From positions 32,001-96,000 of IMG/VR virus record IMGVR_UViG_3300037391_000010: DNA of 64,000 nt; one strand, 5' to 3'. Position 1 is the stretch's first letter; the number at the start of each line of letters is the position of its first letter. This document shows positions 2,216 through 60,124 of this stretch, piece by piece. The position numbers and the translations under genes were made by a program. The notes below the pieces were generated by a model. The model was given only the letters and a program-made list of their open reading frames with translations. It did not search any database and was not told the origin of the DNA. This DNA comes from a virus.

Positions 2216-3175
2216 ATGGCAAACCTTTCTCGTACACAACAGCAGACGGCTATGCTCGGTCAGTTACTCAAGACCGCTGGTGGTCGTCAGAAACTTGCGG
2301 CTTCGTTGGGACCATCCCTCCGTCGTCGTCGTGACTATATGAGCATTGCTCGCAAGGCTCTTATGGTTGAAACTCTTCCCGATGGCGCTCTGCCCATCTA
2401 CGATAAGGAATTCGATGTAAGCGCGATGACTGTGGGCTCGACCCCCGGCTCGTCCTTCGTTGAAGCCTTTGTGGTAGGTGAAGAAGGCGGCGACATCGTG
2501 CGCGTCACCAAGCCAAAGCGCGTCACGGTTCCGACGTTTGAAATCGTGTGCAACCCGATGATTCCGATCACGCAGATCAAGGAACGTCGTTTCGATCTCG
2601 TCGCTCGTTCACTCAACCTTGCAAAGGCTGAAGTAGGCGCAGCGGAAGATGGTTACGTGTTCAACCTGTTTGACGGCGTTGCGGCAGGCGCAGTCGGCCA
2701 TCCACCCAACGATCCGGTTTACAACCCCGACATCGCCATCAATGCTCCCATCGACATCAACTCGTTGGCAGACGGCTTTGGTCAGGTTGCACGCCACGAT
2801 CTGTCGGTTGCTTTCATCTTCTTCAATCCGCGTGACTACACGGACCTGTTGAAGTGGACGCAGCAAAACATCGACCGTGAAACACAGCGCAAGCTGTTGA
2901 AGACGGGCGTCATGGGCTATCTATGGGGCGCAACGCTCCTCCAGTCTCGTAAGGTCGGCTACGGCTGCATCTACATTCTGGCGGACGCTGAGTTCCTCGG
3001 CGTAATCCCAGAACGTATTCCGTTGACCGTGATGTCTGCCGACCGTCCTGACCTCCGTCAGATCGGTTTCAGCATCTTCGAGAACTTGGGCTTCTTGGTG
3101 TTCAACCCATCAGGTGTCCAGCGTCTCACAGTCAATGGCCGCTTCAACGCGACCGCCAACTACGGCGAGAACTAA
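2216..3175 (+). CDS. Major capsid protein (HK97-like fold; by recall resembles the Bxz1-type myovirus MCP family)
   Basis: 319 aa, strong SD, strongly biased codons, pattern GRQKLAASL...ETLPDGALPIYD...RVTVPTFEI...GYLWGA, followed by a terminator. Confidence 0.85.
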   Translation: MANLSRTQQQTAMLGQLLKTAGGRQKLAASLGPSLRRRRDYMSIARKALMVETLPDGALPIYDKEFDVSAMTVGSTPGSSFVEAFVVGEEGGDIVRVTKPKRVTVPTFEIVCNPMIPITQIKERRFDLVARSLNLAKAEVGAAEDGYVFNLFDGVAAGAVGHPPNDPVYNPDIAINAPIDINSLADGFGQVARHDLSVAFIFFNPRDYTDLLKWTQQNIDRETQRKLLKTGVMGYLWGATLLQSRKVGYGCIYILADAEFLGVIPERIPLTVMSADRPDLRQIGFSIFENLGFLVFNPSGVQRLTVNGRFNATANYGEN

Positions 3176-8434: not shown

Positions 8435-11269
8435 ATGGCTAACGAGAAAATTTCACAATTAAATAGCGGAAATCCCGCTCAAGGTGGAGACCTGCTCCTC
8501 ATTGCCCGCTCAGGGCAAAGCCTTTCCGTGACGGCGAGCAGCGTGGCGGCTCTGGCAGGTGGTGGGTTTAGCGGGTCGTTCGCCGATCTCACGTCAGGCG
8601 TCAATGCTTCGGCTATATTTACGGTGGGTAACGGTGGGTCAATCACATTTTCTGGTGTCGCATCCCCCGTCACCACGCAATTAGCTACAGCAGGAGCTTA
8701 CGCCATCCTCGGTGCATCGGCGGTTACGAACTCCGATGGTGCAAGCACAATCATCAGCAATGGGAACATTGGTTCCTACCCGACCAACACGATCACACCG
8801 GGAAGTCCGCCATGGACTCTTTCGGGTGCATCAGTCGTCACCGCCGTCGCTCAGAACCAGACGGATTTGGCTGCGGCGATTTCCTACTATCAGGGATTGG
8901 GGCCGGGGACTGCTCTGGGTGTAGCTCTCGATGGTCTGACCCTCACCCCCGGCGTTTACAGCGGCGGAACTTTCACCTTGAGTGGTGGAAATCTTACGCT
9001 GAATGGCGCGGGCACCTACGTATTCCTCGCATCAACCACGATTGGCCTGACGGGTGCTTCAACAATCACCCTAACGGGAGGTGCAACAGCCGCGAACGTT
9101 GTCTTTGTCGCGGGTAGTTCATTCACCGCAGCCGCCAACGCTGGCACCGTATTCAATGGCAACATCCTTGCAGCCGTTTCCATTACGGTTGACGGTGGAG
9201 CATATACAGGTCGCCTGCTCGCGAATACTGGGGCGGTCACCATCTCCACCGCTACCACTGTCACCTTGTCATCGGGCGTTCAACTCGGTATAGTCAATGC
9301 AAATCAAATTTACGGTGTGACTGTCAGCGGTACGGCTCCAACCGCAGGACAAGTTCTCACAGCTACGAGCGCGACAACGGCCAATTGGCAGACACCTAGC
9401 GGTGGAGGCGGTGGTGGGGCATTCAGTGCAATCACCGCAGGCACCAACACCGCAGCTTTGGTGGTGGGCACGGGCGGTACGCTCATGGTCAGTGGCACGG
9501 GCGTGATACAAGCAACTCAGATTCGAGCCGTTATTGTCAGCGGCACAGCCCCAACCACAGGTCAGGTACTCACAGCGACAGGTGCAACAACTGCGAATTG
9601 GCAGACGCCTTCGGGCGGCGGTGGGGCTCCGGGTGGTGCTAATGGCGCGGCTCAGTACAATTCCTTCAGCACGTTTGCTGGTTCGCCCGATGTCTTCATC
9701 GACAATCCCAGCGTAATCAATGGATCGTATACCACTCCGCTTCAGATCACAGGCAGCAGTGCTCCGGGTAGCCATTTCGCTTTCAACGGCAACGATATGC
9801 TGGCGGTATTTGTTTACGGCAACAATTCTGCACCGGGATTGCGCCTTACGCCATCGGGCGACACTCAAGAGGTTGACATCAACCTCGCAAACTCTTACGG
9901 CGAGACCGCACAGTTCACGCCCGGATTATTGGCGATCAACGGTCTGTTCGGCGGGTATATTTCGTTGGGTCCGAATTCGCCATTCAGCCCCGGAAATGGT
10001 TTTGGCTTCGCGAGATTTGAAGACGACAGTTCTAACTTCACGGAGATTGGTGGAGGTGTTACGGATTCGTGCGGTAGCATCTACATGTTTAACGAATATC
10101 AGGTTTCCACCAACGGCCATGCCGCTCTCACAGTTTATGGCGGCTATGGAGCCCACGATGACATCATGGCGTTGTTCCTGAATCAAGGCGCAACCACAAT
10201 CACTCCGTCTCTTGCATTCGCAGTTGGTTTTTCGGTCGATACAAACGGACACGTGACAGCAGGTAAGGCAGGTCAGGGAGCTTTCAATACAGATTTTGCG
10301 GGAACCATCGGACTTACATCTACATCGCAAGCAGTGACGTTCGGAGCACCGTTCACAGGGGCTAACCCGCCCATAGTAACCGTGACCGCCCTTTCCGATC
10401 CATCGCCTCTCGGCGGCGTGTGGATTACCAATCAAGGTGCAACGACTGCGTGGACAGGATTCACACTCAACGTCACTATGGCTCCCCCAGACTTCATTAT
10501 AGCCACTAGCGCCGAGGACAATTCCAGTCTTACCGTAACTATGACCCTTGCATCCAAGATAACAGGCTCCGTCGCCAGCGGCACCTTTGTTTCTGGTGAA
10601 GTGGTCACACAAACTTTATCGGGCGCAATGGCGTATCTCGTCAGCACGGCTCCTACGGCATCCGCTCCGATGTATATCTCGAACATTATGTATTTTGCAA
10701 CTGGTTCAGTAACCAGCGGCACGTTTACCCCGGGCGAATTGGTCACGCAGGCCAGCACGCTCGCAACGGCTTACCTGATGGGTGCGGTTCCTACGGGATC
10801 GAGTGACATATATCTCATGCTCGTCTCAGGAACCCCAGACTCATCGGATATTTGGACAGGGCAGCTTAGTGGAGCCACTTACACTCCGACCACCGCACCT
10901 GCTATCACGGGAACACCCGACTCGTCGGATATTTGGACAGGCGACACCAGCGGAGCTATTTACACCCCAACGTCCGCGCCTGTTGCCCCCGGTAGTTTCT
11001 CACCGGGCGGGTATGTCGGCAACTTGGTAGGTCTAACGAATTTGTCGAATCTGAATGGTTACCCGTATTGGGGAATACCCGATGGCATCTACTACGGCTA
11101 CCTCCTACCTGCGGGCACTTTTGCTGGGTTCAAAACCTATGGAACGAGCGGCACCACGTTGGTATTCATCGATCCAACACTTACAGGTCCGGGTCAGACG
11201 CTTGCTGTTGAAACAGGCGATGCTCTTTTCTCAGTGAACTTCAACTATCACGTAATCGGGCAGTCGTAA
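8435..11269 (+). CDS. Fibre protein with a DUF3494 ice-binding-like domain and internal repeats
   Basis: LATAGAYAILGASAVTN...LTPGVY...GGATAANVVF...YTGRLLA; same N-terminal anchor as 6356..7768. Confidence 0.8.
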   Translation: MANEKISQLNSGNPAQGGDLLLIARSGQSLSVTASSVAALAGGGFSGSFADLTSGVNASAIFTVGNGGSITFSGVASPVTTQLATAGAYAILGASAVTNSDGASTIISNGNIGSYPTNTITPGSPPWTLSGASVVTAVAQNQTDLAAAISYYQGLGPGTALGVALDGLTLTPGVYSGGTFTLSGGNLTLNGAGTYVFLASTTIGLTGASTITLTGGATAANVVFVAGSSFTAAANAGTVFNGNILAAVSITVDGGAYTGRLLANTGAVTISTATTVTLSSGVQLGIVNANQIYGVTVSGTAPTAGQVLTATSATTANWQTPSGGGGGGAFSAITAGTNTAALVVGTGGTLMVSGTGVIQATQIRAVIVSGTAPTTGQVLTATGATTANWQTPSGGGGAPGGANGAAQYNSFSTFAGSPDVFIDNPSVINGSYTTPLQITGSSAPGSHFAFNGNDMLAVFVYGNNSAPGLRLTPSGDTQEVDINLANSYGETAQFTPGLLAINGLFGGYISLGPNSPFSPGNGFGFARFEDDSSNFTEIGGGVTDSCGSIYMFNEYQVSTNGHAALTVYGGYGAHDDIMALFLNQGATTITPSLAFAVGFSVDTNGHVTAGKAGQGAFNTDFAGTIGLTSTSQAVTFGAPFTGANPPIVTVTALSDPSPLGGVWITNQGATTAWTGFTLNVTMAPPDFIIATSAEDNSSLTVTMTLASKITGSVASGTFVSGEVVTQTLSGAMAYLVSTAPTASAPMYISNIMYFATGSVTSGTFTPGELVTQASTLATAYLMGAVPTGSSDIYLMLVSGTPDSSDIWTGQLSGATYTPTTAPAITGTPDSSDIWTGDTSGAIYTPTSAPVAPGSFSPGGYVGNLVGLTNLSNLNGYPYWGIPDGIYYGYLLPAGTFAGFKTYGTSGTTLVFIDPTLTGPGQTLAVETGDALFSVNFNYHVIGQS

Positions 11270-14637: not shown

Positions 14638-17600
14638 ATGAAGCTGGACGCCACACAAGCGGCGGCTGCCAAGCTTTCCCACCTAATCGAGCCCGGGCGT
14701 ACCGTCTATTCCACGGATGGTCGCGCCTACAGGGTCTTGTCAAAGATCGCCTCGGGGGGCTCCCTGAGCTTCCGTCTGGCAAATCTTCAGGGACAGCCTG
14801 TTCCAACCCCCGCAAACTTTACCCCGATCAGCGGGGCTTGGATGCGTTTCGCGTCCTTCCTGAAGTACGCCTACAACAAAGACATCACCGCAATCGTCAA
14901 CGAGATGATTACGCAGGCGGGTTTACCTATCGACCCCAAAATGGACTGGGCTGCGTACCTGACGAAGACTTACTCCGCAAATCTCAGTTCTGTAACCACC
15001 GACCCCGACATTCAGGACGAAGTGATCTATCGGACGGTCGTCTATCTTTTGTTTGAACGAAAGAACAAGAACGGCAAAAAGGTTCTGGAGAACTTTGCCG
15101 AGAAGCTGAAGAACTTCGATGTAAAAACCCAGAAGAAGCCGCTCGCAGAACAAGTCAGCGACTACCTGAAGGGCACCTTCCTTTACTACGCCAAGGATCA
15201 TGCCAAGCATGATGCGATTGCCCTGATGCGCCCCGAAGAGATGAGCATGGAGCAGCCCGGCGAAGAAGGTGAGACCTACAACATCCTCGACACCGAAGAG
15301 CACGCTACCGCTCCGGGCGTTGGACAATCCGAATCCGACCGCGACATCGATCAGTTCATCGCTCAGTTCCAAGAGTGGGTGAAAGGCAAGGAAACTCCGA
15401 AGTCCGCCCCTAACTACGCCGCCCTGCTCAAGATTTTCTGGGATCAATCCCAACAGACCGAGAGCGGAGAAGTTAAGATCAGTGATTTGACGCAAGAGTG
15501 GATTCGCCGCACAGGTTTGAGTTTCGACTCTCTGAAGCAGTACCGAGACAAGATCGGCGGCTTGCTTCGTGATTTCGTTTATGAGAACAAGGCTCAACTG
15601 GGCAACTCTTACAAGCTCGCCGACCTGTTGCAGCACATGTTCCCACCGCCTCCGAAGGCGAAGGCACGTCCAGCCAAGGCTTCGTCCTTCAAGGCCGCAG
15701 GGTGTATCGCATCCGAATACTGCCCGCAGTGCGGCAACGATGAGAATGGCTGCCATTGCCCGAACAAAGCGGATTTGCTGGATGGCGAGACACGAGGCGA
15801 TAAGACGGCCTCGGACCATCACCGCAAGCAAGTGTGCAAGTGTGGTAGCGTCCAGACCTGCCGCTGCTCGGCTCCGAAGATCGCTTTCAATGTGAACTCC
15901 TGCTCTAACTGTCGTACCGCTGCTGAGAAGCCGAAGTGTCCGCACTGTGGCTCCGACGATTACGGCCTGATGCCCACGGATTTCGAGACCGCCAAGTGTA
16001 ACGCCTGCGGCAAGAACTGGGAGCACGGCATCGTCAAGGGTATCAATGACCCGAAGGAAGCCGCTTACGGACACGCCGACAGACCGATCAATGAGGAACA
16101 GACGAAACTGGAACAGGACGTAGATCGTTTCAGCAAGGAACTCAAGAAGTTCCCCAAAGGGCCAACGGGCATGACGCCTGACGCTACCAAGGCTACTCCC
16201 GAGTGGCAGGCAGCAAAGCGCAACTACGATCAGGCTTTCCAAGCCCTGCGGAATTACAACTCCAAGCACACGGCGGCTGACCTCGGTCGATGCTCCTGTG
16301 AATGGGAAGAATGTCCGTTGGGTCACAAAGCTGGTGGGTGTCCGAACCCCGCAGCCCACATGCTTGAGATTTATGGGTACAAGACCCGCTACTGCCAGCC
16401 ATGCACCGATGCAACCATCGAGTACATCCGCTTGGAACAGGGTACGGGCGATGCGGACAACACGGTTAAGATTCTATCCTCTGTAGACACGGAGCATGGC
16501 GTTCACCCATCTCAGCCTGAGGATCACAAGGCTGCCGCTCCGTACTGCGACGGCTGCGACCGCCCGAAGGCGAACTGTATCTGTGAGGGCTGTGAGTGCC
16601 CAGAGAACAAGAACGCGAGCAAGTACGGCGACAAGATCAAGAAGATGGAAGCTCGTCGCGGTGAGTCCATCGAGTCAACGCTTAAGAAGGCGGACGGCGA
16701 AATGGGCGAAGCACCAGAGAAGCCCACTCTTCAGAAGCTCCCCAGCGAGGGCGGCTTCCACCCTATCGCGGCAGGCGAGATTCAATACACCGCTCCCGGA
16801 TTACAGGTGGTACTCGCCGAGGACTGGTTTATTTATGTGACGGATGAGACCACAGAGCACATGTGGGTTTACAATACGGAGATGTGGTACGAGTGGGGAG
16901 AGATTCCAAACGCTTTCGGTGAGGACACAACGAAGCCCCAGCCCACGGTCGAAGCGATGATCCCGTATGCCAAGGGGCACACACCCGAGCCTCTCATGGA
17001 TGACAATAAGAAGCAGATGACGCTTCAAGAATTTGAAGCAAGCAACGGCGACAACTGGGCTGATCCCGGTTTTGACAAAGAGGGGATGATCGGTCACGAT
17101 TTCATGAATGCCGATCAAGATGCGATTCGCCCCCGCATTACGCCCGGAGACACTGGACGCCTGCCTCATGCTCGCACGCAGGGGTCGCTTAAAGAATCTG
17201 CGGAAGGCGGGCTACAACACGCAAATTTGCCACGTTTTGTCGTAATGAACGGCGGCTATCCGATGGAAGTGCACAAAGAGAATTGCCGCGACATGAACAT
17301 GCCGAAGTATCGTCATGCGCCCAAGGATTGGGTTCTCACTGGTAACACAGTTGATGAAGCAGTGGAAGTGGCGGCGGGAGAGTTGAACAGCCAGTTCGAT
17401 GAGCCGTATGACACGGAAGACCTCTTCCGTGTGATGCCTTGCTGCCGTAAGAAGACCGCTGCGGAACTCGCTGGTCGTGGCGGCGGGGAAGACGATGTAC
17501 GCGGAGCAGGTGATCTGTGGCGTGAAGAGTTCTATCAAGAGGGCGGTTCAGCGGGGGCTCCTCCAAAGATTGCCACATCGCTGAAAACATTGCCATGCTG

Positions 17601-20600
17601 CGGGTCGGTATCAAGTCATCACAAACCCGGTTGCAAAGTGTACAATGATAATTTCACCAAGACCTTGACCACGTTGTATCCAGAGAAGTTTGGGAGTGGT
17701 GATATGTTTGTAGCCGCAACGAAAATTGCCGCCGATCAGTGGAAGGTCACCATCCGCGATCCTAAAGGAAAGCAACGAGAGGAAAAGGTTAGGGGTCAGG
17801 ATTACAGCGCAGCCGAACGTGCAGTGACAAAGAAGATGAAGGACAAAGAACAACTCGTTAGCATGACGGTTGCCAATAAAACTGCGGCTCCTGCGGCAGC
17901 GGCACCAGCACCAGCCGCCCGACCAGCGCAAGCACCCCAGACAGTGGTAGCTCCACCAGCAGGCACGGCTGTCGCTCTGCCGGGTCAACAACCGACGACA
18001 GAAGACGAGAAACCGATGCGGAAGACAGTTGTACCCGAGCTTCCCGGAAAGAAGTGGCACATGACCAGCAAAACAGCAAGCATTCTCGAAGACGCCTTCC
18101 AGTATTTCATGGAAGGTAAGAAGGAGGGAGGGCTGGCGGATGTGTTCAACGAACATTACACCCGCACTGGCAAGGGCGAAGACAAGTACATCGCCTGCTC
18201 CAAGCTCATGATGGATTTTGAGTACGCTTTCCAGCGTCAAGAGGACGGCTCCCTAAGCGACGAAGACAGTCTCCGTGAGGACGCGGAGAACGCATTGCGT
18301 GAGATCGTTGGCGATGACCCGAACTACAGCGAGAGCGCAGCACCAGCGACAAAAGGGGCACTCAAGTCTGGACAGAACACTCCCGAAGTAGAGGCTGAAG
18401 TTGCTCAGTTGGCGCAAACTCATCCGCTGACTGAGGTTCACGAGAATTGCAACCCAGCCTATGAGCACGGGCAGTGGTGGATCATCTGCGGCCCATGCGG
18501 TGCTTCGTGGGCGGTTGAAGATGCTACGGGCGGACAGAGCTACAACGGTCTCGATCTGGAAGAGGTTGATGCGGGCGATGGTTCCTGCCAAGAGAATCTC
18601 CATGAGTCCTCTACGGTTCAAGTTCCGGGCATGGCTGGACTGCAATCAGAGGCAAAGGAAGTAACGAGTTCGGTGGAGAAGAAAGCATGGATTGAGGATG
18701 AAGGTGAAGTAGAAGAGGAATCGGTTCAGGATCGTTTGGAATACCTCAGGGGCGAACTCCGCGCCGAGCGGATCAGTCAGGGGGAGTTGATGGAATTACA
18801 GGGTCTTGCCGACTACATTGACCCCGGCGATGTGGAATTGTTGGAGGCCGCTGGTGTCGAAGAAGTTATATCTCAGCCCGATGTACCCATTGAGACACCT
18901 GAGTTCGGTGAAGCCGATAAAACCCGTCTGAGGGGTCTTGGTGTAATTGGAAAGAAAAAGAAGGCGTTCGAGCCCGGAGCCAATAGTGGTATCCGTGGTT
19001 CCAACGACGGCACGTACATCTATCAGGCGGACGTATGGTGCGAGAATTGTGCTACGGAGATCGCCGCCACGTTGGATGCGGAAGGCAAGACGCCGCCTAA
19101 CGTGATGGATGAGGCTTCGTATGATTCGGACAACTACCCGAAAGGGCCGTTCTTCGAAGAGGAATCCGATGCACCCGAGCATTGTTCGGGCTGCAAGATT
19201 TTCCTTGAAAACCCACTGACGGCTGATGGCACAGAGTACATGACACAGATGGTTGATAAAGCCGTCGCCGAAGGTCGCGGCGAAGAGCCACACATTAAGG
19301 AATGGATGGACTTTTACGGGTATCGTCCTGAGGAGAAAAACATGATAGAGTCATCCGATGCATCGGACAAAATCAACGCAATGCCGCAGCGTGGCAGGCC
19401 AAAGAGCCCGTCGCAGTTGGGTCTCCAAGAAAAATCAGAACTCGATCTGCGTAATGAGGGAATCCCTTTGAGAAGCAGCGAGGACAAAGTGGCGGCTACT
19501 CCACAGCCCACGTCTGGCGAAGACGAGGGGTTCAACGTCAAGGTCGTCTACAACAAGTACGGCATCACGCTGGAGCCAACCAACAACCTGCTCAGCGATG
19601 TGCAGGGCATCGGCGAATCGATCCCGAAGCCGAGCATCTGGGAACTGATGGAGGACTTCTTCACCAATGGCTGGGAGATGGTCAACCCTGAAGACATCGG
19701 GGCATTGACATCTGGCGAGATCATGAGTGACCAAGACGGCAACGTTTACTGGCACGAGCGTTATCAGATCGAGGACATGGTTGAAGAGTTGATGAACGGC
19801 AACAAGGTCAACTTGCAATACGGCGGCAACCTGTTCGAGATGGATGAGGGCAGCGAGATCGCCCCGCCTGCCGAACCCGATCCGAATCAGATGGAGCTTC
19901 CGCTCCAGTCTTCCAAGAAGGAGGCCACGGGCGAGATGAGTCAGGCTGAGCTTGACGAGAATGGTCGCGAAGAGTGGCCGATGCATTACAACATCGCTGA
20001 CGCTCTTGGGGCTGAAGTAAAGCCGTTCGACCAGTATCAAGGGCCGTATGTTCGCGTGCCTGAAGGTCGTCTGTGGGTCACTACTCCCGAAGGAGCGGGC
20101 GATGGGGCGGAACTCATCGTTTGGAACGAGAGCAACCGTAAGTCGAGCGAGCCGTTTATGTGGGATGACGAGAATGCGGCGGTCGATGCTGCTCTCAGCG
20201 TCATGGATAATCCCCCAGCCAACACTTTGCCTTGGGGTGCGGAGCGTGAGGAGCAGTTGAAGAACGGCCCCGACACGTCTGAGGTCGAAGACACGGTTCC
20301 AGCGGAACATCCCGAAGGCTGGACGCCTGAGTTTAGTAAGGGCGACAAGGAGAGTCTGCACGGACTTGGTGTCAAGGGTTCGAAGAAACAGGCGGCACCC
20401 GGCGACGGTGGGCTCCAACGCGACGTACAAAAAGCACAGGGTCTCAAGCCAGAACAGAAAAATTACGACAAGGCTATCGTGAACGCCTATGAAACCCATC
20501 CGTTGGTGGAATTGCTCTGGAATTCCATGAAGCGTGATCCGCAGCACAAGGATCGCGTCCAGACTGGGTACGGCACCAAGACGAAGCAGGGTTTGGTGCT

Positions 20601-20646
20601 GAGTATCGCCCGAATCATGAAAGAGAACCCTGTGTCTGGAGAATAG
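14638..20646 (+). CDS. 2002-aa cassette polyprotein: N-terminal sigma-like domain, then many Zn-ribbon and acidic modules separated by (K/R)xA
   Basis: SD AGGAGG; mosaic of CxxC and acidic blocks; roughly 20 KxA junctions. Confidence 0.75.
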   Translation: MKLDATQAAAAKLSHLIEPGRTVYSTDGRAYRVLSKIASGGSLSFRLANLQGQPVPTPANFTPISGAWMRFASFLKYAYNKDITAIVNEMITQAGLPIDPKMDWAAYLTKTYSANLSSVTTDPDIQDEVIYRTVVYLLFERKNKNGKKVLENFAEKLKNFDVKTQKKPLAEQVSDYLKGTFLYYAKDHAKHDAIALMRPEEMSMEQPGEEGETYNILDTEEHATAPGVGQSESDRDIDQFIAQFQEWVKGKETPKSAPNYAALLKIFWDQSQQTESGEVKISDLTQEWIRRTGLSFDSLKQYRDKIGGLLRDFVYENKAQLGNSYKLADLLQHMFPPPPKAKARPAKASSFKAAGCIASEYCPQCGNDENGCHCPNKADLLDGETRGDKTASDHHRKQVCKCGSVQTCRCSAPKIAFNVNSCSNCRTAAEKPKCPHCGSDDYGLMPTDFETAKCNACGKNWEHGIVKGINDPKEAAYGHADRPINEEQTKLEQDVDRFSKELKKFPKGPTGMTPDATKATPEWQAAKRNYDQAFQALRNYNSKHTAADLGRCSCEWEECPLGHKAGGCPNPAAHMLEIYGYKTRYCQPCTDATIEYIRLEQGTGDADNTVKILSSVDTEHGVHPSQPEDHKAAAPYCDGCDRPKANCICEGCECPENKNASKYGDKIKKMEARRGESIESTLKKADGEMGEAPEKPTLQKLPSEGGFHPIAAGEIQYTAPGLQVVLAEDWFIYVTDETTEHMWVYNTEMWYEWGEIPNAFGEDTTKPQPTVEAMIPYAKGHTPEPLMDDNKKQMTLQEFEASNGDNWADPGFDKEGMIGHDFMNADQDAIRPRITPGDTGRLPHARTQGSLKESAEGGLQHANLPRFVVMNGGYPMEVHKENCRDMNMPKYRHAPKDWVLTGNTVDEAVEVAAGELNSQFDEPYDTEDLFRVMPCCRKKTAAELAGRGGGEDDVRGAGDLWREEFYQEGGSAGAPPKIATSLKTLPCCGSVSSHHKPGCKVYNDNFTKTLTTLYPEKFGSGDMFVAATKIAADQWKVTIRDPKGKQREEKVRGQDYSAAERAVTKKMKDKEQLVSMTVANKTAAPAAAAPAPAARPAQAPQTVVAPPAGTAVALPGQQPTTEDEKPMRKTVVPELPGKKWHMTSKTASILEDAFQYFMEGKKEGGLADVFNEHYTRTGKGEDKYIACSKLMMDFEYAFQRQEDGSLSDEDSLREDAENALREIVGDDPNYSESAAPATKGALKSGQNTPEVEAEVAQLAQTHPLTEVHENCNPAYEHGQWWIICGPCGASWAVEDATGGQSYNGLDLEEVDAGDGSCQENLHESSTVQVPGMAGLQSEAKEVTSSVEKKAWIEDEGEVEEESVQDRLEYLRGELRAERISQGELMELQGLADYIDPGDVELLEAAGVEEVISQPDVPIETPEFGEADKTRLRGLGVIGKKKKAFEPGANSGIRGSNDGTYIYQADVWCENCATEIAATLDAEGKTPPNVMDEASYDSDNYPKGPFFEEESDAPEHCSGCKIFLENPLTADGTEYMTQMVDKAVAEGRGEEPHIKEWMDFYGYRPEEKNMIESSDASDKINAMPQRGRPKSPSQLGLQEKSELDLRNEGIPLRSSEDKVAATPQPTSGEDEGFNVKVVYNKYGITLEPTNNLLSDVQGIGESIPKPSIWELMEDFFTNGWEMVNPEDIGALTSGEIMSDQDGNVYWHERYQIEDMVEELMNGNKVNLQYGGNLFEMDEGSEIAPPAEPDPNQMELPLQSSKKEATGEMSQAELDENGREEWPMHYNIADALGAEVKPFDQYQGPYVRVPEGRLWVTTPEGAGDGAELIVWNESNRKSSEPFMWDDENAAVDAALSVMDNPPANTLPWGAEREEQLKNGPDTSEVEDTVPAEHPEGWTPEFSKGDKESLHGLGVKGSKKQAAPGDGGLQRDVQKAQGLKPEQKNYDKAIVNAYETHPLVELLWNSMKRDPQHKDRVQTGYGTKTKQGLVLSIARIMKENPVSGE

Positions 20647-24389: not shown

Positions 24390-27216
24390 TGAGCCGACGC
24401 ACAGACAGAATGTGGAAAGCCGCCGCCCGCGTGACGGCGCTCAAGGTCGAAGAGCCCACGTCCACCGTCTACTCGGTTCGCACTCTCAAGGACGAATTGC
24501 CGAAGGAATTCTTCGCTGAGTTCATGACGACGAACGCGCAATATGATCCCGCCCACCCCCAAGGTAAGCCGTCGCCTGCCGCCCTGTTGCTGGATGTTCA
24601 GGTCGTGCGTGAGTACAGCCGTGTGACCGACGAGGCTGGCTATAAGCCGTGGCCTGGTCCGCAGAAGGATGTTCACTGCTGGTGGGAACTGGAGAGCGGC
24701 AAGGCTGTGGGCTGGAACGAGAACCCGAGCAAGGGCTGGAGTTTCCCCGTCATCACCCTGCACAATCTCAAGGTCTGGAATGGTCGCGGCGACTACAGCG
24801 ATCTGGACGGGCATCTGTTCGTGTGCGCTGCGACCAAGAAGCAGGCCGTCGAGTTGATTAACAAAGCTGGATACAGTTGCGGCAGGATGAATTTGCGTGA
24901 ACTGAACGGATACTTCAACGAGGGTTGTTGGGGTCGGGACATGAACGGCATCGCGCAGGAAACTGGCGTCTGGTTCCAGTCTAAAGAGGATGCTTCGGCA
25001 CCATGCCCATGCGACATCCCATTTGGCGATTTCGATAAAGCGCATCAGGATGCGTGCCCGCGTAAACCACGGAGGCTTTTATGAAGCGCCCCAATTTCAG
25101 GAACCGAGAATGCCCGAAGTGCGGCGGCAAGATCGGCATGATCCGCCGCGAGGGATTCATGAACCTGTACGGCTGCGTGAGCAACACCCATGTGCAGGTG
25201 CAGGGCACCTACGGTTACCATCCTGACGACTTCCCCAAGAAGGCGAAGCCGATTCCACAGAAGGAAATCGACAAGTTCATCAGCACCATCCGCTACCCGA
25301 AATTCGCGGCCTTCGCGGTTGGCAAGCTAATGGCGAAATTCAAATTCACCCGTGAGCAGGCGACTGCCGCGTATAAAGCGAGGACAATATGAAGGCACTG
25401 AATGCGTTGTATCACTCTGAACGTGAATTGGGATTCGCACCAACCATTCTCATTCTGGCTTGTGTGCTCGTCCTCTTGCTCGGACACGCCCATGGGCAGC
25501 AAGCCGACCAGAAGTCGCCGACCGAAGCGGAGATCAAGGCGCTCTACAACATCCTCATGCCGCCCGCACCGATGTCTGAGCAGGCGCGGTCTTTGTTCGA
25601 TCCGAACTACGTGCCGCCTGTCAAGAAAGACGGCGTGATCGTGCGGGCGTACAAGTCCTACGATTACTCGCTCAAGCTGGACTACGCACGGAACTACTGT
25701 GCGGTCAACAAGCCGACCGCGAAGCACCCGAAGGTGCAGCGCGTGTACGTGAAGAATGGTGACATCTACGAGTGCGCGACCAAGACGATCACGCCAGCAG
25801 GCTCGAATTGAAAAACATCCGCTGGCACGTCGAAATGGTTGTGGCAATCGGGCTGATGTGCGTGGCTCTGGCGTTCTTCACGGTCTACTTTGGGGTGCGA
25901 GGAGAGGCGATCTAAATGGCTGGCAACTCAGGCAAGATGACGAACGAGGCTCTCGCCGCACGCGGCCCACGCATGGTGCTGGCACGGGTGGGCGCTAACG
26001 GTCAAGCCTATCGCGGCTTGGTGATCTACCGCGAAGGGCAGTGCCCGATCAAGGTGCCTTACTCGGTACTTGCAAAGTCGTACTCGTTGAGCTATCTTTT
26101 AAGGGTGGGAAAGGGAAACCAATGACCGCGCTGACAATAGCAATTTTCGATCTGCTGATGCTCCACTTTCTCTACGTGGCGGTCTCGCTGGTCGTGGGCA
26201 CTCTGGCGGCGATAGATGTCCATAAGGAAGGCAAATCCGTGCCTGTCATTGTGGTCGCGTCTCTGGTCTACGCCATGTTTTGGCTGCCGTTGCTCCTCGG
26301 CAAGATCGTGTCGAGGCAATTACGTCCGATGGGGTTGATAAAATGAGCAAGCGCAAGGAACGCCAAGCCGCACGCCCCTCAGCCCTCCTGAACTGGTTCG
26401 GGAAGGCACCACACCCGTCCGACTGCCTCGTGCACTGGCGGGACACCGTGGGCTATCGCGGCGTGGCAGACTTCGACGAGACGATTGCTCAGCTTCGTGC
26501 GGATTGGGATTTGCTCACCGCTACGGACGCGGGTAAGCTGGCTCTGGCTCGTCTGTTGAACGCTCAGTACGACAAAGCATGTCAGGAGCAGGCCGAACAG
26601 GACGCAGGAGACGACTTATGAAACCTGAATTGGAAAACAAGCTGGTAGACTTGCAGGCTCACCTACTCGAAAAGAACGATTCCAAAGGTCTCTTCCTGTG
26701 GGACGCCGTGCGGCAGGCGATCAAGCAGGACGACCAGTGGGAAGAGATTTTGGTCTGGGCTTCCAGTTGTCAGGCCGCAACCGCCGAGGGGTACGCCTAC
26801 AGGAAATCTGCATCCAAGGGCGAACGTACCCGCCACGCGACGATCTGCAAGAAACTTAGGGAGATGCTCGCGACTGGCTTGTTTAGAGAGCACCGAGGCC
26901 ACCAGCCGTTCCCGAGCGTCAAGCACGCTACTTTGAAGCGGCTGGAAGAAGCCGAAGCCGCCTGCATCAAGGCGAACGTATGATCTACGGGAACCGACAG
27001 CCATCCGCCGCCGAGATCAACGCGCACTTGAGCACGAAACTCAAGCGAGCGGTTCTCCATAGCTCCCCATCCCTGAAACTCCGCATCATCGCCGCTCGGG
27101 TGGGTAAGAAACGGGACGGCGTGAGCCCGCTGGAAGTCCAGATCATGGGCTACGAGTCGCACATTGACGGCGGCTGGAGCGCGGTGAGGCCGGATACCCG
27201 CATCGACCTGCTCTAA
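24389..27216 (+). CDS. Run of coupled small early-type genes (24389-25084, 25081-25392, 25389-25811, 25916-26125, 26122-26346, 26343-26621, 26618-26983, 26980-27216)
   Basis: Mostly ATGA/TAATG overlaps; includes a Zn-ribbon protein and membrane/exported proteins; no family recognised. Confidence 0.65.
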
Positions 27217-27262
27217 AAATAGTTCAGATTCCTAGCGATTTGGGCTCGGTGTGGGGTATAAT
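27217..27262 (+). promoter_or_regulatory. Conserved promoter module copy 3 (no ATG follows)
   Basis: AAATAGTT-CAGATTCCTAGCGATT...GGGGTATAAT. Confidence 0.65.
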
Positions 27263-27268
27263 GTAAGT

Positions 27269-27339
27269 GATAGTTTGCTGGTAACGCGGAAAACCAGTAT
27301 CGGGGTGCAGAGCCTAGAGCCTGCACCCTATTTCCTTTT
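27269..27339 (+). ncRNA. Candidate ~70-nt small RNA ending in a terminator hairpin
   Basis: Downstream of promoter copy 3; stems CTGGT/ACCAG and GGGTGCAG/CTGCACCC followed by TATTTCCTTTT. Confidence 0.35.
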
Positions 27340-28174
27340 AGGCCCCTTCGAACCTGCCGCAGTGAGATTGCGGCGTCCACCCGCAGCATCCCGCGTGACG
27401 GCTATCCCAATTGCTCTCGATGGAGTTCAGGTCGGGCTGGTAGGAGAAATACGGGGTTACACGGACAGGGAACGGGTAACGTTTGCCTTTGCGGTAGTTG
27501 TCCCACGCAATGGTGAGATGCCAGTTGCGCTCGTTCACTCGCAGGTTGAAGCCCACGGCTTTGACGCTCTGGAGGTTCCAGTTGATGTCAAAGGCTATGT
27601 TCGTCTTAGGCATGTAACCTTCTAGCAGCATCCGCCCAAGCCTCTTCGTAGGTGTCGCCCGTGCCGATGACAGGAGCATTGAGGGCGTCCGACTTGTAGA
27701 CTTCGCAGGCACACATCTCGGGGTGGGGGAAATTCTTCTTTGGCATCCACGCCCCAATACGTCGCCTTGGGGTAGACCTTCCAGACGGCCTGCTCATTGG
27801 CTCGGGCCTGCTTCTGGGTGATCTTAGGCAAGACGAGCTTCCTGCTTGTTGAGGGCTTCGGTGATCTTTGCAGCCTTGGTGCCGCGCAAGTCTTCGTTGA
27901 GGACGAAAGCGACGATGGTCTGCGACAGCTTGAGACCAGTGGCGATGCCAAATTGGGTCTTCCCCGCATGGCCTAGCTGAATGATTTTATCGACTGTGAG
28001 TTGATCCATACCTGCTCCTTATTCGTAATAGACGATTATGAAATACTCGCTGAAGCCGCCACGTCCTGACTTGACTACCGAGAAGATCGTGTAGCTCTGG
28101 CTCTGAAGGCTGTTGAGTCTGTCCTCCAGATCGTTGTCCTTGACCTCGGTCGTGTGCCACTTTCGAATCGCCAT
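27338..28174 (-). CDS. Four small minus-strand genes (28019-28174, 27824-28009 HTH-like, ~27606-27831 frameshifted, 27338-27613)
   Basis: SD AGGAG before 28009; overlapping stops and starts; KTQFGIATGLKLSQTIV HTH-like. Confidence 0.55.
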
Positions 28175-28185
28175 ACAGCTTAATA

Positions 28186-28929
28186 CTACCGATTTGCCCG
28201 ACTTACGAACATGTGGTCAAAATCAGGGTCGGTGATCTTAACCCTAAAGTCCCCCAGTATCGCAGGATCGGTGCGGTAGATGTTCCCGAGCTTCTGAACT
28301 TTCCGCTTCGAAAATCCTGTCCCGCTGGGGTTTGCCTTGTCAATGAGGGAATGGATGAACGCTCCCAACGCCTTCTCTTCTGGGTCCTTGGATTCCAGCA
28401 GTTGCTTGCTCGACCGACTCATCGCACGGCGGATGTCAGGGCGGTGGAGCTTGTGAATCTCGGCTACCCGCTGGAAGCTGCGGGTCTTGATGTACAGGTC
28501 GATGATCGTACTTAGGGGCACGCTCTTGATGCTGTTCTCCAGCTTCGCCTGCACCAGCACATTCTTCATCTTGTCCTCGGTGAATTCCTCCCCATACAGA
28601 ATGAACGCACACAGCACTTTGACCGCCATGCGGATGCGGAAGGAGCACACCGTCTGCGTGCTGCGGTGGATGATCGCCAGAGTGTTCTGGGTCTTGCTCA
28701 GCAGATAGTAGCTCAGCAGGAGTTCCTGATCCTCCTTCTTCAGGAGACGCAAAATCTTCAGGAACATTGGGAAATTCTCCTGAATGTAGGTGAGGATTTT
28801 CTGGTCTTCTTTTTTCTTGGGGTCGGACTCAGCACTGAGAAGTGTTTGGCCTTCAAGGGCTTCTTCGTCAGTCAGGAGCATGGCGCGGGCAGAAGTGATT
28901 GAATCGAAATACGGAGTGTTTTCAGACAT
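28186..28929 (-). CDS. Transcription regulator with two sigma-region-4-like HTH units
   Basis: LKKEDQELLLSYY...KTQNTLA...TQTVCSFRIRMA and IIDLY...SFQRVAE...RPDIRRAM. Confidence 0.55.
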   Translation of the reverse strand: MSENTPYFDSITSARAMLLTDEEALEGQTLLSAESDPKKKEDQKILTYIQENFPMFLKILRLLKKEDQELLLSYYLLSKTQNTLAIIHRSTQTVCSFRIRMAVKVLCAFILYGEEFTEDKMKNVLVQAKLENSIKSVPLSTIIDLYIKTRSFQRVAEIHKLHRPDIRRAMSRSSKQLLESKDPEEKALGAFIHSLIDKANPSGTGFSKRKVQKLGNIYRTDPAILGDFRVKITDPDFDHMFVSRANR

Positions 28930-28976
28930 GGTTATGGTATAATACTAAACCCATCGACATTTTTCGGGGTTTTTCC

Positions 28977-29005
28977 AAAATAAAACGGGCACCCGAAGGT
29001 GCCCG
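28977..29005 (-). terminator. Rho-independent terminator after 29027..30865
   Basis: Minus strand CGGGCACC-TTCG-GGTGCCCG-TTTTATTTT. Confidence 0.9.
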
Positions 29006-29026
29006 ATGTTGAGCCTGACCAGCGAC

Positions 29027-30865
29027 TTAGCTGTGCTTCAGGGCGAATGCAATTTCCAGAGTCTCGTACCCGAGTGGGTTCGCGAACTGTGGTGTCCAAG
29101 AGCCAGCACCGATCTGGGTGCCGTACTCCACAAGGTAGTGGGCTTCAGAGCCGACCAGCTTGCCGTTGCTAATCATGTAGTAGCCGCCCTCGGTCACTAC
29201 TGCTGGGCTGCCCGCTACGGTGTAACCTGTCAGCGTGGAGTCTGTCCCGAGGTCGATCCCGTTGGCACTCTTCTGGAGACCAACGACGAAGACCGCATCC
29301 GCGCCAGTCGTGACGATTGGCGAGGTAGCAGCGGGGTTGCTGATCGTGATTGCTGTCGTTGCGCCGTCCACCGTTACCCCCGTCATGCCCGTAACATCGA
29401 GCACTTGGAAGTTGATGCCGCCATCGAACACGGGCTTACCAGCCGCGAGGTCGAGCGGAGCCACAACACCGTTCTGGTACACGGAGTTGAGGTTCACAGC
29501 ATAGGTGCCAGCGTTCGCCGAGTTGCAAACCCAGACATAGATGCATGGGTAGTACCCGTCGAGGTTCCAATCGCAGGTCTGCCACTGGGTTTCAGAACCC
29601 GGGGGAGACATGATCGGAGCGTAATCGCCGCCCGCAAGGACGATGCTCGCCACGAGTACCCAGTCGTTGACGCTACCGCCAGAACCCGGAGGATTCGTGG
29701 TGGTGGAGGTTTCGGCGTTGGTCACAGCCGCCGTCAGGGAGATCGCTCGACCAGTGAAGGTCGCAATACCCGTCTGGCTGAGGGTGACTGACCCCGTGCC
29801 TGCGATGTAGGTTCCAAAAACCACGCTGCCGTTGAGAATAGCCGACGCACCGCACACGAAGATGATGTTTCCAGCCTGTGCGCCGTTTAGCAGGGTCATG
29901 GTCGAGTTGACGTTCGACGTGAACGTGCTTCCAACCTGAATGACCCACTGGGCGTTCACGTTCCCACCCGCGTCGAAGTTGACGTTGCCAGAGGCAGCCA
30001 AATCCAGCGAGCTAGAAGCGGTGTACGTGCCCGGGGTGAGCGTCATTCCGCTTAACTGCGTTACGGTCGGGCCAGCGGCCAAACCTTTGTAGTAGCCGTA
30101 AGCAGTGTTTGCGTTCGCTTGCGCCTGAATTGCCAGCGGGGTGTTGATCTGGAACGATGCTGGAACGAAAGTTCCCGTGATCGACGTGCCGGGGGTCAAA
30201 CCCACGAGCCCGTTCACGATTGTCCAGATGCCCGCGCTTGTGATGGTCGAACCGGCGAGTACGGCAAACTGAGCCGCCACACCCAACTCCAATTCGATGC
30301 CCGACTCAGGAGTTACAGTCGAGTTGTCCGAGATTGTCGGGGTGGGAATGAAGTCGTTGATTCCCTGCAAGTAGCCGAATTCCGTGCTTGCGCCGTGAAG
30401 CTGATCGAACGGAGCGAGGCTCTTGAGGCCGAATGCGATGGCAATGAGCGTGTCGCCAGCCAATGGGCTGATGAAGACGTTATCCCCTTGGTTGTTCGAC
30501 GCCATGTTCGAGATTTTCTGGGCGTACTGGTAGGGGGTGCCGATTCCGACTTGCAGTTGCGCCGTGCCGATGTCTGCGGGAGGAGAACCGCCGCCTACCG
30601 CCGCCACACCGTTCGGGTTGAGAAGGTAAAGCTGGGTTGCGGAGGACTGGACGCACACGAACTCGCCGTTATTCCTCTGGTCGGCGAAGCCGCTTACGAC
30701 GAAAGCCTGACCTGCGTAGGCTCCAAGCGGCTGCGATGCCGAAGCTGCCCCGCCTGTGATTGTGCCAGTGTAAACCGTGGTGCCCGTGGCCGCTCCCTGA
30801 AAAGGACGAACGGCGGCGGCAACCTGTGTTAGCTCAAAAATTGGACCGAATGTTGGTTGACCCAT
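29027..30865 (-). CDS. Virion protein with a DUF3494 ice-binding-like domain
   Basis: LGVAAQFAVLAGSTIT...VGLTPGTSITG...TLTPGTY...FDAGGNVNAQWVIQV...LLNGAQAGNIIF...FTGRAIS. Confidence 0.85.
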   Translation of the reverse strand: MGQPTFGPIFELTQVAAAVRPFQGAATGTTVYTGTITGGAASASQPLGAYAGQAFVVSGFADQRNNGEFVCVQSSATQLYLLNPNGVAAVGGGSPPADIGTAQLQVGIGTPYQYAQKISNMASNNQGDNVFISPLAGDTLIAIAFGLKSLAPFDQLHGASTEFGYLQGINDFIPTPTISDNSTVTPESGIELELGVAAQFAVLAGSTITSAGIWTIVNGLVGLTPGTSITGTFVPASFQINTPLAIQAQANANTAYGYYKGLAAGPTVTQLSGMTLTPGTYTASSSLDLAASGNVNFDAGGNVNAQWVIQVGSTFTSNVNSTMTLLNGAQAGNIIFVCGASAILNGSVVFGTYIAGTGSVTLSQTGIATFTGRAISLTAAVTNAETSTTTNPPGSGGSVNDWVLVASIVLAGGDYAPIMSPPGSETQWQTCDWNLDGYYPCIYVWVCNSANAGTYAVNLNSVYQNGVVAPLDLAAGKPVFDGGINFQVLDVTGMTGVTVDGATTAITISNPAATSPIVTTGADAVFVVGLQKSANGIDLGTDSTLTGYTVAGSPAVVTEGGYYMISNGKLVGSEAHYLVEYGTQIGAGSWTPQFANPLGYETLEIAFALKHS

Positions 30866-31053
30866 GGTGGTGTGTTCCTTGGAGGAAAATATCCTCTTAC
30901 ATTAGATGGACTCGGTAGCGAAATAATTTTTCCACTGTTTTTCAGGGAGTATAGAGAGGTTATTCATTCACTGGCGGCTCCATTGATCGATGTCTCAGTT
31001 ATCAAACTCGACTACCAAAACCTTCAAATAGAAGTTTTCTCTGGAAGGATTAC

Positions 31054-59018: not shown

Positions 59019-60074
59019 ATGGTTCCGTTAGAGACCACTGCATTCGCATTTTCTTCCCTCAAGTTCGGCAATCTCTTAGCTGTAGCTCTCTTTCAAGGCC
59101 CTAAACGAATCGATCAACTCTTCGCCCTCGCGCAGGAACGTATGCTGCACGAATGCGGTGACAAATGGCAATACGAGCTTATCCAGACCCTCATCGCTAT
59201 CGGTGAAGAAGTCGATGGCGTGTGGCACGTCCGCCGCACTATGCCAACGGATTTGCTCCCCGTCACCACACCCCCGCCCACCAAACCAGACTCCCAGTAC
59301 GACAAGATTCAGTACGATCCTCGCACGGGGCACCACGTCGGCGACGACGGTTTCCGCGTCCCGAAAGATTTCCTCGAATTCTACGAACGCTACCCCAACT
59401 ACATCCGCAATTGGGTGAAGAAACGCCTCGCCCGCTTTACAGTGGACGAAGACGTTGAAGACTGGACGCAGGATTTAATCATTCACATGAAGTACCTGCC
59501 GCAGACCAGCAAGCATCGCAAGCCGGGTGCAAATGACCGCATAAATGGCTGCACGGACGTGATCGAGACGTTCAACCCCATCAGTCAATATGGGGCCAGC
59601 GAACGTCGTTTTCGCTCCTATGTCAACATGTGCCTCACGAACAAGTTCAACACCGTGTACTCGAAGCGCAACAAGAATCCAATCTGTCGGCAGGGCAACG
59701 TCACCATCGTGACCAACGTTGATCCGTCGCACGAAAACGGTGAGTATGATGTGGTGGACGATGCGTATTGCCACGTGCATTCAGACTACCTGAGTGCCGC
59801 CACGTCCCGCTCCGCACAGCAGTACGAAAACTACCTGCTCGCCAATGAGTTTCGTCGTTACGTTGAGGCGAAAGACCCCGAGTTGGCACCAGTGGTGGAT
59901 GCGATCCAGCACGCTTCGTCCCAACACGAGGCTGCTCGATCTTTGGGCATCAGCGAAACCCTTTTCGCCCGTCACCGCACGCGGCTGAAGGAGTTGGCCG
60001 CAAGCTTCCAAAACCACGATGTGGGAGAGGGCAAACGGAAGCGCGGGCGACGTAAAACGGCGCAGGTGGTATAA
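59019..60074 (+). CDS. Phage ECF-like RNA polymerase sigma factor
   Basis: Region 2-like FYERY..YIRNWV...DVEDWTQDLII...F.P...FRSYV; region 4 HTH SQHEAARSLGISE...HRTRLK. Confidence 0.7.
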   Translation: MVPLETTAFAFSSLKFGNLLAVALFQGPKRIDQLFALAQERMLHECGDKWQYELIQTLIAIGEEVDGVWHVRRTMPTDLLPVTTPPPTKPDSQYDKIQYDPRTGHHVGDDGFRVPKDFLEFYERYPNYIRNWVKKRLARFTVDEDVEDWTQDLIIHMKYLPQTSKHRKPGANDRINGCTDVIETFNPISQYGASERRFRSYVNMCLTNKFNTVYSKRNKNPICRQGNVTIVTNVDPSHENGEYDVVDDAYCHVHSDYLSAATSRSAQQYENYLLANEFRRYVEAKDPELAPVVDAIQHASSQHEAARSLGISETLFARHRTRLKELAASFQNHDVGEGKRKRGRRKTAQVV

Positions 60075-60124
60075 TAGGCAACAAATGCAAGAACTTCGGG
60101 TTCTAATCTAGTATGGGGGCGAGC

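Follow-up and report, generated by a model that had tools for sequence, protein, structure and literature searches.

A probable, highly diverged sigma-factor-like module heads a giant cassette protein in relatives of an Acidobacteriota jumbo phage

The window analysed here is a stretch of 64,000 nucleotides (positions 32,001 to 96,000 of IMG/VR virus record IMGVR_UViG_3300037391_000010, a record of 155 kb) from a jumbo Acidobacteria phage. Two of its genes are the subject of this report, one encoding a giant protein with a conserved N-terminal module and the other a stand-alone sigma factor. The features of the two genes are as follows.

14638..20646, + strand: giant ORF of 2002 aa (ORF call and translation)
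14671..14835, + strand: Tudor-like small beta domain, residues ~12-66
14833..14874, + strand: connecting helix, residues 66-79, with the motifs RFA (residues 70-72) and KYA (76-78); left boundary of the sigma-like unit
14875..15249, + strand: sigma2-like helical domain, residues ~80-204, with conserved W104, D127-E-A/V-I-H motif, F153 and L177/F181
15250..15318, + strand: acidic disordered linker, residues ~205-227, with a conserved N-x-L-D-T-E-E motif
15319..15639, + strand: sigma4-like domain, residues ~228-334, with a terminal helix-turn-helix formed by helices 282-292 and 296-316 and the turn T-G-L-S
15640..15717, + strand: low-confidence Pro/Lys/Ala-rich spacer (pLDDT 38-52) with FKAA (residues 351-354); right boundary of the module
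59019..60074, + strand: stand-alone phage sigma factor of 351 aa; order of parts: winged-helix N-terminal domain, sigma2 (~118-219), linker, sigma4 (~248-331)

The first ~350 residues of the giant protein are the constant head of a protein family in phages related to an Acidobacteriota jumbo phage. This module is a real, conserved and separable unit, and the first unit of the giant protein. Its homologues number 124, all of them metagenomic phage proteins, with lengths of 52-1936 aa (fragments are among them); nearly all carry the module at the N-terminus, followed by C-terminal parts that vary from nothing to ~1700 residues of variable cassettes. In the 2002-aa protein itself, the module gives way to a patchwork of cassettes, some rich in Zn ribbons, some acidic and some small and globular, and comparison with the orthologues of 1908-2109 aa encoded by related viral contigs showed that conservation is patchy past residue 350. 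A ~350-residue protein family that had no name, with 124 metagenomic members, is thereby defined.

A preliminary description of the window, made from the sequence, had proposed that the block 14850-15700 is a paralogue of the stand-alone sigma factor, embedded as the first cassette of the giant protein and bracketed by RFA/KYA and FKAA sites. The block corresponds to residues ~71-354 and lies inside the conserved module. The bracketing motifs and all of the peptides quoted from the two translations were found where they had been placed, and the N-terminal position of the module across the family bears out the designation as first cassette. The limits of the block were also well chosen: across five orthologues, conservation falls from 0.92 to 0.28 just past residue 350, and several family members start exactly at the AYNKDF motif at residue 77/78. 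Conservation in the family runs over the whole length of the module, linker motif included. In the family the module begins near residue 10 and takes in the Tudor-like domain, which lies upstream of the block and had been missed.

The layout of residues ~77-345, as judged from sequence profiles and a predicted structure, is a sigma2-like domain, an acidic linker and a sigma4-like domain with a helix-turn-helix, with seven predicted helices at residues 104-116, 123-140, 169-187, 228-251, 257-273, 282-292 and 296-316. The helix that connects this unit to the Tudor-like domain is predicted with somewhat lower pLDDT, and its motif residues are conserved in the family (R70 in 72%, A72 in 89%, K/R76 in 63% and A78 in 89%). 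The pLDDT falls below 50 at linker residues 205-215, while N215, L217 and D218 are conserved. The segment that had been likened to the SLD-x-P motif of sigma region 3.2 lies in this disordered linker, between the two helical domains, and in profile alignments the linker pairs with that of the 59019 sigma family. A zinc-binding anti-sigma (ZAS) assignment was considered for the Cys-rich segment just past the module and discarded, as the sequence lacks the H-x3-C-x2-C signature.

The relationship of the module to the stand-alone sigma factor is visible at the level of families rather than of single proteins. The 59019-60074 product is a homologue of gp3 of phage Tunturi 5 and has a weak match to phrog_1740. 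Compared directly with it by BLASTP, the module gave no significant match (E 0.75), although the top local alignment coincided with the first block that had been paired by eye. Similarly, an HMM of the module family, built from 133 trimmed module sequences, scored the window's own sigma factor at a non-significant 3.2 bits (E 3), nevertheless the best non-self match of the HMM across the whole 155-kb record, translated as six-frame ORFs. When the same HMM was searched with HMMER against the 59019 family (121 proteins), the top match reached 18.8 bits (E 5.8e-6) and 22 of the 121 fell at E<0.1, all with collinear alignments spanning HMM positions ~103-312, compared with at most 0.7 bits for reversed sequences and at most 4.9 bits for 20 shuffles. 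The reciprocal search, with the sigma-family HMM against the module family, was weaker (best E 0.003), and identity between the two families is under ~15%.

Profile-profile comparison gave a concordant picture. Aligned by hhalign, the trimmed module and 59019-family alignments matched over 184 collinear columns (score 23.3, E 0.022, probability 2-3%), compared with scores of 9-18 for reversed or column-shuffled controls, the reversed alignments spanning just 12-17 columns. An earlier run with untrimmed MAFFT alignments, which had returned a short, non-collinear match at a probability of 0.57%, was replaced by the HMMER-trimmed alignments. Every pair that had been matched by eye, including the acidic linker motif, recurs in order in the profile alignments. 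In these alignments the seven module helices map one-to-one and in order onto helices 128-137, 143-158, 195-219, 255-285, 287-298, 302-309 and 313-331 of the sigma model, the two structures having been predicted independently, and an insertion of ~28 residues between the region 2.2-like and region 2.4-like helices is common to both families. The proposed paralogy therefore stands as collinear homology between families, whereas the pairwise similarity of the window's two proteins is not significant. The module is likely to be a distant homologue of the 59019 sigma family, outside the same orthologous group, and on this sequence evidence we regard sigma-like homology itself as likely.

Comparison with bona fide cellular sigma factors, namely 17 Sigma70_r2 proteins (ECF sigmas) from one Acidobacteriota genome, placed the module family level with the accepted phage sigma family. 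Against the ECF set, hhalign aligned the module family over 161 collinear columns (score 23.3, E 0.015, probability 3%) and the accepted family over 163 (score 22.7, E 0.015), with reversed and shuffled controls at 8-18. With HMMER, neither phage family matched the same 17 proteins in either direction.

Curated libraries returned no sigma factor for the module. In Pfam, hmmscan found no sigma model for the module at E<=1 or for 35 family members at E<=0.1, and PF04542 had no match anywhere in the 155-kb record. The accepted 59019 phage sigma fails these models too, and the Pfam sigma models are thus insensitive for this phage lineage. A Pfam match to TAF1_subA was sub-threshold (20.5 bits against a cut-off of 31.8) and was rejected. 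PHROGs gave nothing for the module and no sigma family among the module-family members, one of which matched a Q-like antiterminator phrog. Neither single sequences nor two profiles retrieved a sigma factor in searches of PDB sequences, the best match being a designed 'CAP repeat' HTH (E 6.6e-4). In structure searches, the best Foldseek E-values were 0.076 against the PDB and 0.02 against BFVD, where sigma and TFIIB entries were scattered among the rows, and the ESM-atlas shape search stayed at TM < 0.3 throughout. Among language-model neighbours, the nearest named clusters were sigma-70/ECF at a score of 0.94 with ~148 shared features, values in a range attained by 4-10% of shuffled proteins; two of these clusters also neighbour the stand-alone sigma.

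The Tudor-like domain comprises ~55 residues. Its best structural matches are the RapA NTD, the UvrD1 Tudor domain, CarD and Mfd, all of them RNAP-binding domains, and the P-G-x-x-V at its start lines up with the RID motif G-D-x-V-V, although the profile match to Tudor/RID scarcely exceeds that of shuffles and the sequence similarity is marginal. A fusion of Tudor-like and sigma-like parts was not seen in any match found.

The genomic setting of the module is conserved. The module gene belongs to a region of structural (head and tail) genes, and in the phage studied and in relatives the major capsid gene lies 5-12 kb upstream of it. In a complete 313-kb relative the module is a stand-alone 301-aa gene at the same position. 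Module and stand-alone sigma co-occur in four of five records, the fifth being 71% complete. A head maturation protease is encoded near the module gene, and K-x-A-[A/S] is strongly enriched in the 2002-aa protein and in other giant or head-module proteins. The cultured relative Tunturi 5, which infects Tunturiibacter psychrotolerans, encodes a 667-aa protein, gp345, that is homologous to the N-terminal part of the module; the match covers query residues 12-181 and the sigma4-like part lies outside it. The label 'virion structural protein' carried by gp345 is a prediction-based annotation, and the Tunturi paper reports no mass spectrometry.

Taken together, our data are best explained by a model in which residues ~77-345 make up a sigma70-family module, ECF-like in layout and highly diverged, that lies behind a Tudor-like domain resembling those of RNAP binders and probably docks on the host RNAP core. 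Could the resemblance to sigma factors instead be fortuitous? A lineage-specific helical protein with a generic helix-turn-helix might collect weak matches through its all-alpha architecture and the composition of phage proteins, and the uniformly negative curated-library searches and the hhalign probability of 2-3% would fit such a protein. We consider this quite improbable, because the HMMER result (E 5.8e-6, with 22 members at E<0.1) lies far above the reversed, shuffled and same-genome backgrounds, the profile alignments extend over 160-184 collinear columns compared with 12-17 in reversed controls, the helices correspond one-to-one with the sigma model and three independent kinds of search are enriched for sigma factors.

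Two further explanations accept a sigma-like shape and differ over its use. The module could be a sigma-derived or sigma-shaped anchor with no role in transcription that targets variable cargo to the procapsid, portal or packaged DNA, by analogy with the MuF/gp7 domain of polymorphic phage toxins, the HTH perhaps binding phage DNA. The constant N-terminal head with its hypervariable C-terminal cassettes, the conserved site downstream of the capsid gene, the predicted structural label of Tunturi 5 gp345 and the extreme divergence of the module from functional sigmas all speak for such an anchor. We nevertheless judge it unlikely: neither Pfam nor PHROGs gave a match to MuF or any other head-protein family, the cargo-less stand-alone forms would leave an anchor nothing to carry, the module is conserved over its full length down to the linker motif that it has in common with the sigma family, and the nearest matches of the Tudor-like domain are RNAP binders. 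Less likely still is an RNAP-directed decoy or tether that fills the sigma-binding surface of the host core without recognizing promoters, and so shuts off host transcription or keeps the cassettes that it carries bound to the polymerase. What speaks for an RNAP-binding layout serves this explanation and the preferred one identically, and the phage already possesses a better-conserved sigma for promoter recognition; however, the HTH and sigma2 helices are conserved across the family at 25-40% identity, which suits DNA recognition at least equally.

Jumbo phages that lack their own RNA polymerase are thought to begin transcription on host sigma-70 promoters and then to switch using phage sigma factors made after entry. 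The phage studied here appears to rely on the host enzyme, and no multisubunit RNAP domain was found in its record or in those of its complete relatives. For single-subunit RNAP, PF00940 had no match, but neither did the control of that search. If the module is a sigma70-family protein directed at the host polymerase, its sigma2-like part would contact the beta-prime clamp helices, its sigma4-like part the beta flap and its Tudor-like part the beta lobe. We envisage that the module may be expressed late, packaged into the head and cut loose by the head protease at flanking K/R-x-A sites. Injected with the DNA as a ready-made sigma, and aided by the Tudor-like domain, it could then capture host core polymerase for the early promoters of the phage, which would give it a role in promoter specificity. 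The preliminary description had suggested a virion-delivered, protease-released sigma that replaces a virion RNA polymerase; we regard this full scheme as possible, if on the doubtful side.

The module differs in several respects from known sigma factors. Phage ECF-like sigmas, such as phiEco32 gp36 and the 59019-60074 product, are free proteins of ~200-350 aa, whereas the module is fused, with a Tudor-like domain before it and ~1650 residues of cassettes after it; its gene lies among structural genes and not beside replication or early genes, and it is more diverged than any sigma recognized by curated models. Like cellular ECF sigmas (Sigma70_r2/Sigma70_r4_2/Sigma70_ECF), it appears to have region 2.1-2.4 helices, a linker and region 4 helices in the same order and with matching spacing, but it fails the Pfam models outright, carries the ~28-residue insertion and has no evident partner anti-sigma. 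Residues 12-66 are, like the CarD_TRCF_RID, RapA and UvrD domains, a small beta domain, although the likeness in sequence is marginal.

Giant, multi-domain proteins with swappable cassettes that are encoded near head genes and presumed to be injected with the DNA are known as polyvalent proteins and MuF-fused polymorphic toxins (Iyer et al. 2017, as cited in PMC7824862). The 2002-aa protein shares this giant modular build near head genes, but its constant part is sigma-like instead. No MuF or polyvalent-protein-associated domain turned up when the 2002-aa protein was scanned in full against Pfam and PHROGs, and the sole trace of either was one weak BFVD row (rank 12, E 0.11). Takeover of transcription by virion-delivered proteins is established for the virion RNA polymerases of N4 and phiKZ and for T4 Alt (PMC4496689, PMC13282480, PMC7824862). 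If packaged, the module would likewise favour phage transcription at DNA entry, and it could be trimmed by a prohead protease, as are T4 Alt and phiKZ head proteins. What enters the cell in those systems is a complete polymerase or an enzyme that modifies RNAP, whereas the module is a sigma-like subunit with putative packaging; the reviews consulted on virion-delivered takeover proteins do not describe the delivery of a sigma-like subunit.

Overall, our work indicates that the phage clade studied probably has a second, very diverged sigma-like protein, and that neither sigma-type family of this phage lineage is picked up by curated sigma models. The fusion of sigma-like and Tudor-like parts at the head of a giant cassette protein encoded among structural genes suggests that a factor targeting RNAP may be carried in by these phages themselves. 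Because Tunturi 5 is in culture and carries a homologue of the N-terminal portion of the module, the idea is directly testable. If true, it would represent a third strategy for early takeover of the host, the other two being the virion RNA polymerases of N4 and phiKZ and the injection of RNAP-modifying enzymes such as T4 Alt.

The 2002-aa giant protein encoded in the window begins with a conserved module of about 350 residues, and this module shows family-level similarity to the family of the stand-alone sigma factor encoded at 59019-60074. The observation in the preliminary description of a sigma-like block (14850-15700) heading the giant protein was thus borne out. The IMG/VR record that holds the window is 155 kb long, with an estimated completeness of 48%, and among deposited phages it has a single relative, Tunturiibacter phage Tunturi 5, which is an Arctic-soil jumbo myovirus (309 kb) infecting Acidobacteriota (PMC11924767).

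Gene order (window positions; G000 is the whole record)
Upstream of the window: tail sheath, putative portal and head maturation protease homologue (phrog_18299, E 2e-14; L020:15942-16898, which is G000 27942-28898), the last about 5 kb upstream of the major head protein gene
2216-3175: major head protein
Between the major head protein and 14638: several unnamed genes, then an ice-binding-like protein and a DUF2793/tail-fibre-like protein
14638-20646: giant 2002-aa ORF
Downstream of the giant ORF: further giant ORFs
55969-58101: large terminase
59019-60074: 351-aa stand-alone sigma

At 60113-60865, directly after the sigma gene, lies a gene for a protein with a TonB C-terminal domain (PF03544, E 1.5e-20). 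Ice-binding-like domains (PF11999) occur in two proteins (8435-11269 and 63232-63999), which is notable given the lineage's link to Arctic soil.

The protein used for comparison is a genuine sigma factor. The product of 59019-60074 shares 35% identity (3e-37) with Tunturi 5 gp3, whose annotation reads 'RNA polymerase sigma factor', matches phrog_1740 weakly (E 1.8e-5), and has sigma and ECF clusters as its language-model neighbours (0.97). Its AlphaFold model (pLDDT 82) has a winged-helix N-terminal domain followed by two helical domains. No Pfam sigma model recognises this protein, so the curated models are blind to this phage sigma lineage, whose family numbers at least 120 proteins, carried by large viral contigs and by contigs of Acidobacteriota MAGs. 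Large MAG contigs of Acidobacteriota, some megabase-sized, carry homologues with 33-53% identity (loci L022-L039; for example L029, at 802-809 kb within a 4.69-Mb contig); these might represent prophages, or else cellular versions of this unusual sigma type, which Pfam Sigma70_r2 misses. The homologue in a complete 313-kb relative (G022:C1:145524-146303) was reported with one in-frame TAA, which falls within the matching region.

The similarity between the module and this sigma holds at the level of families, but not for the two window proteins alone: BLASTP of the module against the 59019 product gave E 0.75, although its top local alignment was nonetheless the first block paired by eye in the preliminary description. 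A module HMM, built from the family trimmed with HMMER to 133 sequences, was searched against 121 sigma-family members; the best match reached 18.8 bits (E 5.8e-6), 22 proteins had E<0.1, and all alignments were collinear over HMM positions ~103-312. Reversed targets reached 0.7 bits, and 20 shuffles at most 4.9 bits, with one match at E<0.1 in total. Against six-frame ORFs of the whole phage record, the top non-self match was the 59019 ORF at only 3.2 bits, so same-genome composition does not explain the family-level scores. Alignment of the trimmed families with hhalign gave 184 collinear columns (score 23.3, E 0.022, probability 2%), against scores of 9-18 for reversed or column-shuffled controls, the reversed alignments being 12-17 columns long; the untrimmed module and sigma alignments gave no match. 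The segments paired by the profiles are the same as those first paired by eye: a D-x-D/E acidic helix, a (V/I)(L/I)E(N/T)F motif, the next amphipathic helix, an acidic linker, an F-x-x-x-F/W helix and a terminal G-(L/I)-S helix-turn-helix.

Cellular sigmas provided a calibration, using 17 Sigma70_r2-positive proteins from one Acidobacteriota genome (ECF profile of 197 columns). In hhalign, the module family aligned over 161 collinear columns (ECF positions 30-194, score 23.3, E 0.015) and the accepted phage sigma family over 163 (score 22.7, E 0.015), with controls scoring 8-16. At the profile level, therefore, the module appears to equal the accepted phage sigma in sigma-likeness. HMMER detected neither phage family against the 17 cellular sigmas, both being too distant.

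In an exhaustive phmmer run, residues 1-371 matched 124 proteins at E<=1e-3 (42 of these at E<=1e-30), with lengths of 52-1936 aa and some fragments among them. Nearly all matches begin within the target's first 30 residues and extend to about query residue 315-370, and conserved positions span the whole unit (G20, W104, D127-E-A-I-H, F153, L177, F181, N215-x-L-D, F244 and G293). Across five orthologous giant proteins (1908-2109 aa), column identity in the module is 66-92% and drops to 28% directly past residue 350, beyond which conserved stretches are interspersed with replaced ones in a mosaic. Some family members lack the first domain, as they start exactly at A-Y-N-K-D-F (residue 77/78). 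Given this start and the fall in conservation after 350, the boundaries proposed earlier (residues ~71-354) delimit a separable unit; the family module also takes in residues ~10-70, which had been overlooked. A short motif, D-K-x-x-L-(R/H)-G-L-G-V-x-G-(K/S)-K-K, occurs twice in the giant protein near cassette junctions (~18920-18985, residues ~1428-1448; ~20345-20410, residues ~1903-1923).

AlphaFold model of residues 1-371 (35-sequence alignment, mean pLDDT 83.5)
20-65: beta domain
66 to 202: helices
205-225: disordered acidic stretch
228 to 334: helices
After 334: low-confidence tail

Through the profile alignment, seven module helices map one-to-one and in order onto those of the independently predicted sigma model. 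For residues 66-340, the language-model neighbours were sigma-70/ECF clusters (0.94, a range reached by 4-10% of shuffled proteins), two of them common to the stand-alone sigma. Fold searches with the predicted module were weak and thematically consistent. Residues 12-66, modelled at pLDDT 87-94, likely adopt a Tudor-like fold: CarD and Mfd were among the Foldseek matches, and the matches of an atlas shape search included UvrD, RapA and CarD/TRCF-RID proteins, with TM < 0.3 in every case. Against a profile of 25 Acidobacteriota CarD/Mfd RNAP-interacting domains, 44 columns aligned at E 0.005, with shuffles scoring nearly equal. By analogy, such a domain may bind RNAP.

In the window phage and its relatives, 5-12 kb separate the capsid gene from the module gene downstream of it. 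A distant complete relative (IMGVR_UViG_3300037054_000148, 313.6 kb) encodes the module on its own, as a 301-aa protein, at the same genomic position (L018:8010-8915); six or seven small ORFs (104-440 aa, to 13134) come next in place of the single fused ORF, so the giant protein may have arisen by fusion of genes that were once separate. The stand-alone sigma accompanies the module in four of five records examined, and multisubunit RNAP domains were found in none, two complete genomes included.

The pattern K-x-A-[A/S] may represent a candidate prohead-protease site. The giant protein contains 11 copies where 1.9 are expected (P<0.0005, shuffling), and another enriched ORF contains 15 where 5.0 are expected. 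The 2.5- to 6-fold excess is seen only in giant ORFs, in the putative portal and in the ORF that follows the head protease.

ORFs enriched in K-x-A-[A/S]
Window: 14638-20646
Window: 42174-44105
Window: 50547-53717
G000: 26305-27969
G000: 28898-31093
G000: 112810-129264

No clear enrichment is seen in the 1971-aa ORF at 44657-50572 (5 observed, 3.1 expected), and the remaining ORFs, pooled, are at expectation. Capsid protein residues 26-29 are K-L-A-A, the protease itself has two K-x-A-S sites, and R70-x-A72 and K/R76-x-A78 are conserved in the module family.

The term 'sigma-factor paralogue' holds in the sense of distant homology with a matching domain layout, which we consider probable, but membership in the curated sigma-70 family was not demonstrated. 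Docking to RNAP is the most economical function for the module, and we favour it slightly. One of 34 module-family proteins (alignment A3) matches phrog_127, 'anti-termination protein Q-like' (E 1.4e-6); the match probably falls in the C-terminal part, which would then be a further RNAP-directed domain joined to the module. The reviews consulted describe packaged RNA polymerases and injected modifiers, and do not describe a packaged sigma (PMC4496689, PMC13282480, PMC7824862); the Tunturi 5 label 'virion structural protein' is a prediction-based annotation (PMC11924767). The full model, in which the module would be packaged, released by the protease and injected to act as an early sigma, is attractive and, in our estimate, unlikely as a whole; the cultured Tunturi 5 system permits its direct test.
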